Assembly: GCA_951406725.2 (NCBI GenBank)
Contig: OX597814.1
Location: 92,132,001 to 92,196,000 of the forward strand
DNA from: Octopus vulgaris
Lineage: Eukaryota
Direction of reading: 5' to 3'
DNA: 64,000 nucleotides
The notes beneath the pieces are model-generated. The model worked only from the letters and a program-made list of their open reading frames with translations. It was not told where the DNA came from and ran no database searches. This document shows, in pieces, positions 11,681-63,205 of the stretch (its first letter is position 1; each line of letters starts with the position of its first letter). A program made the position numbers and the translations under genes.

Positions 11681-11860
11681 AACGGGAAGCTTTATGAAAT
11701 TAGACAAAAGACGAAGGCAGGTGGAAAACAAACAAACAATTGTATTAGTATGGCGCTCAGGAAATATAAATAAAACAAGTCTTTAACGTTTCGAGCCTAC
11801 GCTCTTCAACAGAAAGATACACAGAGAGAAAAAAAACACACAGAAAGAAGGAGAGAAAAT
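11681..11860 (-). mobile_element. Penelope-like pLTR fragment in (TA)n
   Basis: Closely similar to 33278-33445, which is attached to a GIY-YIG C-terminus; carries a hammerhead motif. Confidence 0.7.
11780..11817 (-). ncRNA. Minimal type-I hammerhead ribozyme-like motif, variant core
   Basis: UCUUU-CUGUUGA-A-GAGC-guag-GCUC-GAAA-CG-UU-AAAGA: stem I, core, stem II and palindromic ACGU stem III. Confidence 0.7.
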
Positions 11861-12189
11861 ATATATGTACATATATATATATATATATATATATATATAT
11901 ATATATATATATATATATATATATAAATAGATGAGTGTATTCTTACCTTGTTAACAATTAACACGGAAAAAATAAATAAATAGTTACCAGGGTAGCAAAA
12001 ATGTCTTATTGACGAGTTTCGCTTTTTTCACTTTCCTGAGAAGATTGCATTGTTTATACCATTTATTCTTTTGAATAGTATCAGTGGAATTTTCGAAACA
12101 TGTCTCGAAAATAAAAATATTTGATTACACCTGCGTTAAACTCCATTTATTTATTCATATATATATATATATATATATATATATATATA

Positions 12190-13100
12190 ATGAGATATGA
12201 TAATAATAAATTAATATACTATGATATATTAAATACATTATAATATACGTCGCAATACCATTTAAAACCAAAACAGCAAAACTCATAAATGAGGGCGCAA
12301 GACAGCACTTGCAATTGCTAAAAATAAGAGCTAAACATATAACTCGGATAGCCACACAAAATATCACCAACTTCATGAGATATTCAGGGACTGCGAGCGA
12401 CAAGCCACATCTTTCTTCGGCGAAATAAACTCACAAAATGAAGTAGTTTGATAAACCCTATTACGTCATTTCGAAATTTAACAATCATGATCTTGTTTCT
12501 CCTCAAAGGTTTCTATAATTGGCCCCGGCTTAAAGAGATAGTTTGCTTCCCATTTGCTCATGAATGAAAAAACCGTTGAACAGCGAGTGCTAAAATTTAA
12601 AAAAGTTCAAAGAGTATCACTCTTATTTCTAGCAATTGCAGGTGCTATTCTGCACTCTCGTTATGCATTTTGCTTTTTTGCTTTTAATTACTATAGCCGC
12701 CTATATTATAATGTATTTAATATATCATAATATGTTAATTTATTACTATCATATCTCATGGTATTTTTATATACACTTTAACCGTTTTAAATTTTAGCCT
12801 ACGTTGTTCAACGGTTTTTCTCTCACGAGCAAATAGGAAGCAAGCTATCACTTTAACCCGGAGTAAGTGGTAGAAACCCCTGAGGAGAAACAAGACCATG
12901 CTGGTTAAATTTCGAAATAACGTGATAGGGTTTTATCAAACTACTTCATTCTGTGAGTTTATCTCGCCAAAGAGACGTTGTGGCTTACCACTCACTGTCT
13001 GAGTATCTCATGAGGTTGGGGATTGTGTGTGGCTATCTGAGTTATATTTTTAGCTATCATTTCTAGCAATTGCAGGTGCAACTTTGCACCTCCATTTATA
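12190..13100. repeat. Foldback cluster of an unclassified ~400 bp repeat (+ copy 12190-12615; partial inverted copy 12620-12760; inverted copy 12770-13100)
   Basis: Reverse-complement matches such as GCAATTGCTA.AAAT and AATGAAGTAGTTTGATAAA; a further copy at 20410-20614. Confidence 0.8.
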
Positions 13101-58741: not shown

Positions 58742-59818
58742 AAGTCAATAATAGTTTGCACAACACCACATAGTCGCTCACTTACAAAGTCAAGTAATCT
58801 AGGTAGGTGCAAGCTCTTTGGCATCGCAATGATGCGAGTGCAATTTAGGAATTTCCTTCTAAGATATGTCTAAACAAAAATAAGGACCTTACAATCCCAG
58901 CAGTTAGGTGGCTGTTTTGTGCACAGAGTTCATACGCACTTTGGCACGTTTTTCTGTAGAATGTCCAACGTTAAAAATCCTCTCTAACCAAGCATTATTG
59001 GTACGGTTACCGGTTTAGCTACCGAGAGTTCTGCAATGCCAACGGTTGTATTGGGTTACATGTTACCAGTAGCACTTAGAGTCACCTGTCAGGCGTACAT
59101 ACAAATATATTCATGTGAGCGTTTATATATATTCATATATATGTATGTTTGTGTGCATGTGTGTGAGTGTGTGTGCGTCTATGTATGTATGTATGTATGT
59201 ATTATGTGTGTATATATATATGTGTGTGTGTGTGTGTGTGTGTGTATGTATATGTGTCTGTGCTTGTGTTTATGTGTACGTGTGTGTCGGTTATTAACAG
59301 CATAGGCAGTATTATTACTTAACGTGGGTGTTGATAGTCGTGTCTATGATGATATGGTAATTATAGTCTGTTACTGAGTGGATATTATAACGATCCAAAT
59401 TTTGAGGATAATAACACTGTACGACTGGGAGTGGTACAGTGCCAAATGGAAACATCCTTCCGATGACTTCAGAATATAACGATAAATCTACATGCATACA
59501 TGATGGCTGCCCACTCGTTATCGAGTATGGCCATTGCACGAAGGTTAACAGTTATTGGTGCTTTGATCGAATGTGACTTTTATTTGCTTTTTAACGTTAC
59601 AGCCAGAAAAACGTGCCAAAGTGCGGATGAACTCTGTGCACAAAACGGCCACCTAACTGCTGGGATTGTAAGGTCCTTATTTTTGTTTAGACATCTCTTA
59701 GAAGGAAATTCCTAAATTGCACTCACATCATTGCGATGCCAAAGAGCTTGCACCTACCTAGATTACTTGACTTTGTAGATGAGCGACTATGTGGTGTTGT
59801 GCAAACTATTATTGACTT
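58742..59818. repeat. Foldback structure with ~235 bp inverted arms (58742-58977 / 59587-59818)
   Basis: High-identity reverse-complement match read directly; non-coding ~610 bp spacer. Confidence 0.9.
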
Positions 59819-60984
59819 TATTATTACTTTAACTAAGACGACCACCGTAATACTGCTATTTTCGTTCTAAGAAACTCCCGTATAGACGTGTAGTGAATAC
59901 ACGCACAGAGATACTGGTATCAAAAGAAAACTCTCCTGCATCGGTTGTAGAACTGCTGTATCACTTTATTTCGGTTTGTTTTGTGCTTCATCAGTAGGAG
60001 ATCTCCACTAACACTGCATACTGGCTAATTCTCTCTGCCACCGATATACAAAGAAACAGCGACTATTCAGTGAGAAGTGTCGCTAAAGCCCACCACGCCG
60101 AAATTAAGTGATACACTAGTTCCACTACTGTTGCCGAACAGTTCTCATCTGCAGCCAAAATCTCTGCGCTTCATGCGCTAAACGAGAGACCGTCTCCGGA
60201 CGAATATCTCAGTATTACAGTGCCCTTATAATCCACGTGAACTAGTATTTAAAGATACATATATTTAAAACGATAGACAATTTATATCCATATCAATAGT
60301 TTTAAATTGCATACAAATGTTTATTGGCTGTCTTATTTCTCATTAGACTAACCAATTTAGTTAACAATTTTTATCATTGTCTTAAACTGATATCAATATG
60401 TGTCCTCTTTAAACTAGTAACTTTCATTCAAGTCTTATATCTTTATATCCTGATCATTTCGGCATCACAATTCTATGCATAATGGCATTACATACTACGT
60501 ATGAAATACTTATACTACTTACTTAAACTTGGTACACATGATACACACAAACTCCCCACACTTCAATACATATATGTGTGCATATATGTATGTATGTGTG
60601 TAACATTATATATATATATATATATATATATTTATATACATGTATGTATGTATTATGTATATATATATTTATATATATGCATGTATATAACGCACACACA
60701 CGCAGACACAAAGACACACACAGATATATATATATATATATATATATATATATATATATAGAATTGAGAAATTTCAAATCAGGTAAACCACAATGAACAC
60801 ATATGTCGACGGGTTTAATTAAGATAAAATTGTCGAAGAAAAGATATTGATATATTCAAAATACATATAAAAACATAAAAATACATATAGCCATATAAAT
60901 ATATTAATACGCAATACGGTAATGATAAAAAGAAGTATAAGCATATAGGTCTTTTAAAAATAAGTTATATAGTGAAGTGAAAAT

Positions 60985-63205
60985 AATAACCCCCAAAATT
61001 AGGACATACCTTATACAAGAGGCTCAATCAGATACGGTATATTCTTTTATTTTTTATTACATAGTAATATTTAATGAAATATAGGGTTGTACGCTTTTTA
61101 AAAAGAGAGAAAAATATAGTGAAGAGAAAATAATTGGCGTCAAAAAATATTTTAGGTTACATATTAAAAGGAACATATTCCTACGCCTGTTTCAATCCTC
61201 CGAATAAAAAATGAATCTTAAAACTCATTTTCAGAGAACGCCTCCTTCATCGGGGAAAAAGTGATGTTTACTTTAGAATTGCATTCAGTTCATTGCTACC
61301 GTATGAGGTAACTGGAAGCTTTTATGGAAAAAAGGATATATCAATGCAAGCGGTGGAAGTATATATGAGGGCTGATGGGAGGAAAATTACTTTACTTAAT
61401 GTCTTATTGAAAATTATATTTATAATTGCAATCTCGTGTTATAGGCAATATGGTGTTACGTTGTGCGGCGAAACTTAGTAAGGCCATCGTTGAGTACATT
61501 CTGATTTAAAAAGTTTCATGAAAGTTGAATAATATCTGTTGTTACACAAATGAATAACACCAGAAAACTTGTTTAATACTGTACAATTATACAGACGGTA
61601 GATAGTATATCATTCTTTTATGCACATTCTACAATAGCCAATAATCGTGTTGTAAAGGGGCTGGGCTCATCTATAAGAGATCAAGATAATGAATAATTGA
61701 TGTTCTGTAATTTTAAATCATGTATGTATCTAGCTAGTACCGTTGAGTTTTTAGATTTTAACTTACTGAAGGAAGTTAAATGGGTTCTATATCGTCTCTG
61801 AAAATCTATAGCGATCGTTATGTTTACTCTTAACTGATGTTTATCATTTCTCACAATGCATTTATAAATTACATTTTTTCCGTAAAGAGTATCCAGCGAG
61901 CGGACATAATTCAAGGACCCTACAGTTACAACTTTTTGCATTCCTATCTTTAATTTTACTCATATGTATTAGGATCGTATCGGCTTGGCCTATGTTTAGT
62001 TGGGAATGATTGCGTTTTGAGTTAGGAAGACTTGCTTTTTATTTGTTTTATTGATTTTATTTGGACTTATATGGTGCAACTTATGGTGATTTAAACTTAT
62101 AGTCATTTGAAGTTGGAGTTTATTTCTATTTATGGATGCAAATATAGATCTCAGATTCGACGTGGTGGAACAAGATAGCTTTACAGAGTGTTTTTTTAAA
62201 TATGGGGTAATAATTGTGGTGCTTCGGAAAAATTAAATTTCAGGATCTTACAGAACAGTTTTGGTAAATTCTTGACTCTGAGAGAAAATGGGGTTGTAGG
62301 AGGGGGGGAACAAACCTAATAATTTCTCTTTTTTTCTAGATTCAGAGTGGGTTACTACATTAGGGTGTTCAGACATAGAGGGACTACATTTAATACGGTT
62401 CCTAAAATTAAGGCTATGGAGTTTGGTATAGTTAAAAGGTTTTCTTATACTTTCATAATCTAAGGAAGAAATCGTATTAGTAATTTCAAGATTAGTGTCA
62501 GATGAGGGATTAGCTAATTTGATTTTGAGTTTGGTATCAGGGATGTAGAAAATAGGATCATAAAAGCCACTCGATTTTAGGGCTTGATTATAAAATGGGA
62601 CATGTGCATTAAAGATCTCTTCGTTTACTGATTGGTTGGAAATCATAATAGAGACAGCCGTAATAATACTATCGACGGTTAATTTTGGATGATTAGGGGA
62701 AATGTTTATATATTGTAATGCGTGGTTTCACATTGATATAAATTGTCTATCGTTTTAAATATCTGTGTCTTTAAATACTAGTTAACGTGGATGCATTGTA
62801 AGAGCGCTGTGATACTGAAATATTAATCATGAGAAAGTCTCTCATTTAGCGCATGAAGCACAGAGATTTTGGTTGCAGATGAGTACTGTCCGGCAACAGT
62901 AGTGAAACTATTATATCACTTAATTTCGGCGTGGTGGGTTTTAGGAGGCATTCTCTGTAAATGAATTTTACGATTCATTTTTTATTCGGAGGATTGAACC
63001 CCTGAAACGGCCGTAGCAATATTTTCTTTTAATATGTAACCTAAAATATTTTTTGACGCCAATTATTTTCTCTTCACTATATTCTTCTCTCTTTTTAAAA
63101 AGCGTACAACCCTATACTTCATTATATATTACTATGTAATAAAAAATAAAAGAATATACCGTATTCGAGCCTCTTGTATAAGGGAACTCCTAATTTTGGG
63201 GGTTT
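60985..63205 (-). mobile_element. Decayed Penelope-like element with inverted pLTR copy
   Basis: ISNQSVNEEIFNAHVPFYNQALKSSGF (RT thumb), KNVIYKC...FQRRYRTH..SF...NSTVLARYI..LK (GIY-YIG); IR 60985-61243 / 62944-63205. Confidence 0.8.
61178..61257 (-). ncRNA. Hammerhead-like motif with long stem II (CCGAUGA core)
   Basis: UUCC-CCGAUGA-AGG...GAAA-CAGGCG-UA-GGAA; the inverted copy at ~62995-63020 preserves CCU-GAAA-CGGCCG-UA. Confidence 0.55.

Follow-up and report, generated by a model that had tools for sequence, protein, structure and literature searches.

Hammerhead motifs in the window

The sequence analyzed here (the window) is a stretch of 64,000 nucleotides (nt) of the Octopus vulgaris genome, positions 92132001-92196000 of contig OX597814.1 in a 2.8-Gb assembly, in which (TA)n and other microsatellites are abundant. 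It contains minimal type I hammerhead ribozyme motifs in the pseudo-long terminal repeats (pLTRs) of Penelope-like elements (PLEs), which we assign to nine families (A to I), four of them (A, C, E, and G) tied to a PLE reading frame. Our main subject is a set of three lineages, each of which has fixed a different variant of the catalytic core, namely A6U in family A, U4C in family B, and A9C in family C. Positions follow the standard hammerhead numbering, and G8 and G12 are given the roles generally attributed to them.

The motifs are defined by family comparison rather than by pattern matching. A strict hammerhead descriptor gave three matches in the window against a shuffle mean of 0.47 (maximum 1, 30 shuffles), and a relaxed descriptor gave nine against a mean of 2.6 (maximum 7, 60 shuffles). 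The relaxed pattern alone is therefore weak, and the case rests on family data; two of its matches, at 41824 and 43834, look like chance. Among the 150 of 217 Rfam matches listed there is no hammerhead, and those matches are microsatellite noise.

An earlier note on this DNA had named six full motifs with diversified cores. All six sequences lie on the minus strand where it placed them, and those at 11780, 16165, 33375, and 34949 are complete three-stem motifs (33375 with one mismatch in stem II). The remaining two are not full motifs: the copy at 22153 has A in place of U at position 16.1, a minority change found in 4 of 22 family B rows, and the copy at 61178 lacks the 8 nt carrying the 3′ strand of stem II, which are kept at 63003 and in other family members. 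The CCGAUGA core at 61178 is also private to that copy, as the family E majority reads CUGAUGA (22 rows), and we rejected it as a variant core in favor of decay within a canonical family. The suggestion that some cores evade strict searches proved correct for families A (U6), B (C4), and C (C9), on a scale far beyond what the window shows; it does not apply to 61178 or to 16165, where CUGACGA is canonical because N7 is free.

At the family level, stems I and II, GAAA, A15.1-U16.1, and the NUH site are present in A, B, C, D, E, F, G, and I and not in H, and the set is incomplete in two individual copies, those at 22153 and 61178. The core is CUGANGA in D, E, F, and I, takes the corresponding U3-A8 form in G, and is something else in A, in young B copies, in C, and in H. 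Tiny palindromes form stem III, specifically ACGU in A and B, ACGGCCGU in D and E, AUCACGUGAU in F, and ACCGGU in G. The layout is that of PLEs, with 5′ truncation, inverted 5′ copies, and (TA)n targets, and a reverse transcriptase (RT) domain followed by a GIY-YIG endonuclease at the C terminus lies upstream of the pLTR in A, C, and G, and in pieces in E. The reported proximity to (TA)n is general though not universal, in that (TA)5 occurs within 250 nt downstream of 11 of 14 motif copies, as compared with 15% of random places, the exceptions being the 61178/63003 pair (417 and 503 nt) and the copy at 12453 (263 nt).

An A6U lineage conserved through a subfamily series

Family A occurs twice in the window. 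The motif at 11780-11817 (minus strand; core CUGUUGA, predicted cut after 11785) is held in a 5′-truncated pLTR (11682-11850) between (TA)n runs. That at 33375-33412 (minus strand; core CUGUCGA, predicted cut after 33380) carries a private stem II mismatch and belongs to an element 3′ end (33278-34200, minus strand) comprising the final codons of a GIY-YIG endonuclease of Neptune type, a 3′ untranslated region, and the pLTR. Longer genomic copies encode RT, a CX4CxxC linker, and GIY-YIG, the last of which ends approximately 600-730 nt above the motif. Family A corresponds to the 3′ pLTR of a PLE of Neptune type: the combination of a CX2-5CxxC linker with a CCHH GIY-YIG domain is found in the translations of both A and G, as judged against the definition given in Craig 2021 (PMC8557442; here and below, published work is compared at the level of the passages and rows cited).

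When any nucleotide is allowed at positions 6 and 7, family A has 15,487 exact matches in the genome (such exact-match counts are lower bounds throughout), of which 14,944 (96.5%) have U6, 158 have A6, and 385 have C or G at this position. In copies anchored by their flanks, U6 is present in 86 of 88, and N7 is T in 39, A in 30, C in 16, and G in 3. Loop II (GUAG) is invariant throughout the lineage. We considered whether the A6 copies represent living canonical subfamilies and rejected this, since 19 of 25 fall within U6-type clusters and C or G is commoner than A at position 6, which fits back-mutation. The other six are members of the oldest cluster.

With respect to history, clustering of families A and B retained the 216 of 230 copies that span the motif. 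The oldest A cluster, found by a search with the canonical core, has CUGAUGA in three of four rows and 10% divergence; the U6 clusters stand at 9.9, 8.7, 5.1, 4.0, 2.3, and 1.2%. The family B clusters are canonical at 7.3 and 6.5% and C4 at 2.5%. Canonical, older sister copies thus precede the variant core in both A (A6U) and B (U4C).

Across the six U6 consensuses there are no changes at 34 motif sites, against 35 changes at 90 sites of the 3′ flank (Poisson P = 2e-6), and the four large U6 clusters alone give 0 of 34 against 20 of 90 (P = 5e-4). The remaining changes in the motif fall on N7 (three) and H17 (two), with A or U at H17 in every consensus. Both positions are free in the hammerhead consensus, and the probability that five changes would land on two of 36 sites is 5e-7, or approximately 1e-4 if the four loop II sites are also counted as free. 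A motif frozen except at N7 and H17 after the A6U change indicates that the fold of family A is still under selection. In the joint alignment of A and B (29 distinct but related rows), stem II is invariant and stem I shows one clear compensatory pair, a C-G/G-C swap between the two lineages that counts as one event; 88% of cells are paired, as compared with 17-48% when slid. In contigs of four other organisms, N7 has three variants and position 6 has no variant that exceeds 5%, two of them resting on few contigs.

As a separate observation, the three N7 changes in family A exceed the expectation from the flank rate (P = 0.007), which could reflect tuning of the rate after A6U.

Families B and C

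The family B motif in the window (22155-22187, minus strand; core CCGACGA) lies in a unit of approximately 215 nt (22053-22265, minus strand) with (TA)n on both sides. Nearly all copies begin at one point approximately 80 nt above the core, and this common 5′ end, together with the short unit, bears out the earlier suggestion of a nonautonomous lineage; family B is likely a pLTR-only element. It is the sister of A in the tree, and 1 of 32 anchors is joined to a Neptune-like open reading frame (ORF) piece. None of the 32 anchors showed tandem units, a count that did not include a genome-wide search for arrays; the copies examined are dispersed monomers or inverted pairs. Of 10,195 genomic matches, the first 100 listed comprise 78 C4, 20 U4, and 2 A4. 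Decay of the CpG in CCG was considered as the only source of canonical copies and rejected, as most of these sit in the older cluster (6.5% versus 2.5%), although some may be decay. The family B copy at L373:1330-1690 runs straight into an ORF piece that is N-terminal and Neptune-like; it may represent a parent of the short unit that has undergone internal deletion.

Family C is represented by a young element. Its motif (34949-34993, minus strand; core CUGAUGC with an extra G, predicted cut after 34954) has the stem III AGAACU, with two A-A at its center, and lies in a 3′ pLTR (34775-35320, minus strand) approximately 99% identical to 39 other listed copies. The accompanying ORF (35510-38332, minus strand) is intact over 940 amino acids (aa) and encodes RT, a CX4CxxC linker whose spacing is Nematis-like (a label given by eye against supplement rows), and GIY-YIG at the C terminus; its product matches a protein named from Octopus vulgaris at 98% identity. 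An inverted, 5′-truncated copy of the family C 3′ end (38349-38471, plus strand) adjoins the 5′ side of the element. The genome holds 3,428 matches, the first 100 listed being 95 C9, 3 A9, and 2 U9, and within the motif only position 9 and H17 vary. Two other organisms, represented by few contigs, have a majority of A9. Also observed was a 97% match between part of this ORF and an annotated octopus isoform (dynein regulatory complex subunit 6-like), which reflects either exonization or an annotation artifact.

Proposed slowing of cleavage and the alternatives

A6U, U4C, and A9C have been fixed lineage by lineage in minimal type I hammerheads of octopus PLE pLTRs, and as we read these comparisons, with moderate confidence, they likely slow the predicted cleavage rather than abolish it. 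Such a model would place a pLTR promoter, where the RNA begins, immediately above the ribozyme and the start of reverse transcription below it. Only uncut RNA would then transmit the whole unit of promoter and ribozyme, so that a slower ribozyme could be tolerated or even favored. Residual cleavage, whether by dimers formed through the palindromic stem III or with the help of an element protein, may keep the remaining core under selection. Several published observations are in line with this view. A natural A6C hammerhead of phage Bcep176 is slow but cleaves (Perreault 2011, PMC3088659), a viroid with U4C stays infective (Naghdi 2020, PMC7151607), and a PLE hammerhead was cleaved only when protein was added, with uncut RNA as the main substrate for insertion (Frangieh 2024, PMC11167929). 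More tentatively, CUGUNGA could be a working natural core selected through the subfamily series and some 15,000 copies, with successful lineages having repeatedly tuned the ribozyme down by A6U, U4C, or A9C since it is uncut RNA that gets copied, leaving a switch gated by protein, dimerization, or metal. If this were true, the hammerhead that is most common in octopus genomes would escape strict searches.

Were cut RNA the template for copying, insertions would be expected to start at the cut site. The 5′ ends of family A instead pile up 59-90 nt above the core and its 3′ ends lie approximately 100 nt below the cut site, which implies that uncut RNA gives rise to inserted copies, whether the family is variant or canonical. 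As cut-site ends are absent from a canonical family too, this footprint does not separate the competing readings. A further idea, that the variants all stabilize an off-fold in which the core pairs with the ACGU palindrome, was hinted at by one minimum free energy structure but found no support across seven genomic and four window copies, where the direction of the effect varied with copy and flank.

A number of points weigh against slowed cleavage. Family A 5′ ends at the cut number 26, as compared with 17 at a control TA (P = 0.22), a comparison confounded by TA microhomology; no copy of the canonical family D starts at the cut site; and among eight families sampled, only 1 of 462 5′ ends lies within 2 nt of the cut (the cut offsets used for G and I are one base off, inside the 2-nt window). 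Because canonical families also lack such ends, slowing is not needed for spread. All single mutants of the CUGA turn had low activity in a deep mutational scan (Roberts 2023), and A6C lowered a good ribozyme >10,000-fold in 0.3 mM Mg relative to Mn (Naghdi 2020, PMC7151607). Three of the seven consensuses represent four copies each, and the order of subfamilies is taken from divergence; the tree of 216 copies is poorly resolved and neither supports nor excludes a single U6 origin; and the family C data do not polarize the change between A9 and C9. Finally, a fold kept for binding would predict the same pattern of conservation.

That last point defines the strongest alternative, a possibility we regard as real yet doubtful, in which the variant motifs no longer cleave and the fold persists as a noncatalytic scaffold on which the RT/endonuclease binds or the RNA folds, or through which RNA dimerizes, next to the start of reverse transcription. 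Such a role would suit the invariance of loop II in lineage A, the derivation of all inserted copies from uncut RNA, and the normal insertion of catalytic mutants in vitro (Frangieh 2024, PMC11167929), and it would sit well with three lineages having been hit at three different core positions. It is harder to reconcile with the fact that none of the three lineages has lost G8, G12, or the NUH site, and with the match between altered positions 4 and 6 and slow-cleaving natural variants (Perreault 2011, PMC3088659). Moreover, in 620 kb sampled from the surroundings of family A copies, the majority of other families keep CUGANGA or UUGANAA cores.

Neutral loss, whereby the change hitch-hiked in a successful master copy and left a ribozyme that is dead and not yet decayed, we consider improbable overall, and unlikely for family A in particular, where the flank rate predicts approximately 13 motif changes and none is seen outside N7 and H17. 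It does fit B and C, in which little time has passed since the change and, for C, the motif differs little less than the flank between old and young copies, and it also fits the relic family H. The latter (motif 12005-12040, unit 11932-12155, minus strand), reported earlier as a half motif near 12010, has a CUCAGGA core with G5C and no stem II, features common to the whole family; it is a short unit of two length classes with 2,794 candidates, and its abundance with a broken hammerhead indicates that an intact one is not required for a lineage to spread. Naiads likewise thrive without hammerheads (Craig 2021, PMC8557442). A DNA-level promoter element overlapping an old ribozyme is very improbable, for while pLTR promoters are known (2019 NAR review, PMC6765202) and copies of A and B tend to begin 60-90 nt above the core, where a nearby transcription start would put them, such an element gives no reason for N7 and H17 to be the only free sites or for A and B to differ by a C-G/G-C swap in stem I.

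Relation to known hammerheads

The placement of hammerheads in PLE pLTRs is already known. What is new is an A6U core that is fixed in a lineage and persists across its series of subfamilies, together with lineages that parallel it in U4C and A9C. In the literature searched we found no description of A6U or other CUGUNGA-type cores, nor did a search for octopus hammerheads return any relevant description of such cores; the variant survey of Lunse 2017, reportedly the largest for PLE hammerheads, lies outside that search and may report them.

The octopus motifs share with the metazoan minimal hammerheads of Cervera and De la Pena 2014 (PMC4209133) their type I form and pLTR location, an extra nucleotide after position 9, G10.1-C11.1, a tiny palindromic stem III, a predominance of solo copies, and a U3-A8 variant like that of family G; dimers and low activity are also described for the metazoan motifs. 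The consensus and the Fig. S3 rows compared keep U4, A6, and A9, whereas the octopus lineages fix C4, U6, and C9 in thousands of copies. The Octopus bimaculoides element Hydra-1_Obim and further PLEs of the Hydra clade (Craig 2021, PMC8557442, File S2) likewise combine a hammerhead with (TA)n targeting, and their extra nucleotides on both sides of stem II recur in families D and E, but the rows compared are all CUGANGA and list no octopus motif of Neptune or Nematis type. The phage Bcep176 A6C and viroid U4C ribozymes (PMC3088659, PMC7151607) are altered at the same core positions and show slow, detectable cleavage; these are single or rare cases in full-size ribozymes, and the passages compared do not name A6U, whereas the octopus variants are minimal dimer-type motifs inherited through subfamily series. 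The Anolis Poseidon PLE (Frangieh 2024, PMC11167929) also has its hammerhead upstream of an internal RT start and no RNA ends at the cut site, but its core is canonical and its cleavage in the presence of protein was shown, while that of the octopus motifs is predicted. Non-LTR retrozymes (Li 2026, bioRxiv 10.64898/2026.07.22.740005) resemble family B as short, noncoding, pLTR-derived hammerhead units but are defined by tandem arrangement, as opposed to the dispersed monomers or inverted pairs of B.

The significance of these variants lies in the continuing debate over the role of PLE hammerheads, which cleave poorly, insert normally in vitro when mutated, and are absent from Naiads. The octopus genome supplies matched natural pairs (A6/U6, U4/C4, and A9/C9) in otherwise identical motifs of 38-45 nt, and the variant lineages therefore offer a direct test of whether PLEs need to cut at all. 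Should a new viable core be involved, the hammerhead consensus would widen, and descriptor searches would undercount by tens of thousands per genome; should the fold be dead and nonetheless conserved, this would point to a second role for the motif, a structural one.

Other hammerhead families and neighboring elements

The remaining families are mainly canonical. Family D (16164-16227, minus strand) has a CUGACGA core and an extra A on each side of stem II. Family F has a full motif with a CUGAGGA core at 12873-12934 (plus strand), a second, inverted copy with a private C3U at 12453-12512 (minus strand), and a half motif at 20576-20615 (minus strand), all three overlooked previously. Family I is a fold-back of two half motifs (44381-44522) with a canonical family core, and the half at 44472 noted earlier is a true 5′-truncated one. 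No ORF was found for D, F, H, or I within the 1.5-kb flanks searched; their layout of inverted and truncated copies is PLE-like.

Family E, also canonical, comprises the decayed copy at 61178-61257 (minus strand), with its private U4C and the 8-nt loss in stem II, and an inverted, 5′-truncated half motif at 62943-63019 (plus strand), the one correctly listed at 63003. An ORF piece at 62248-62727 (minus strand) contains an RT thumb that appears Hydra-clade-like by eye. Nearby, 63246-63522 holds a Hydra-like endonuclease piece with a fold-back (63372-63522) in which no hammerhead was seen, and 60083-60291 is an inverted copy of 62732-62944.

The family G motif at 38680-38718 (minus strand; predicted cut after 38687), previously taken for a half motif at 38681, is full, with the U3-A8 core UUGAAAA, a 2-bp stem II, and the palindrome ACCGGU. 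A GIY-YIG endonuclease fragment (38838-39191, minus strand) lies upstream of its pLTR, and the genome contains 203 matches, mostly UUGAAAA. A Helitron-type PIF1 helicase fragment (FLDAxxGTGKSF; 39311-39520, minus strand) lies just upstream of this element, and family C sits in (TA)n at the family G 3′ end, making a nested series. Further octopus candidates at L196, L229, L232, and L248 comprise a CCGAAGA pair (another U4C) and three U3-A8 singletons.

Elements of other kinds are also present. Non-LTR retrotransposon copies with RT and zf-RVT domains lie beside (TTA)n at 4690-7527, 3662-4711, and 26853-28292 (all minus strand), the first with a stop-free frame of 945 aa. A C-terminal piece bearing zf-RVT at 57683-58333 (minus strand) belongs to a different non-LTR element and adjoins (GATA)n, and the sequence at 58737-59823 resembles a miniature inverted-repeat transposable element, with 220-nt terminal inverted repeats that are 96% complementary.

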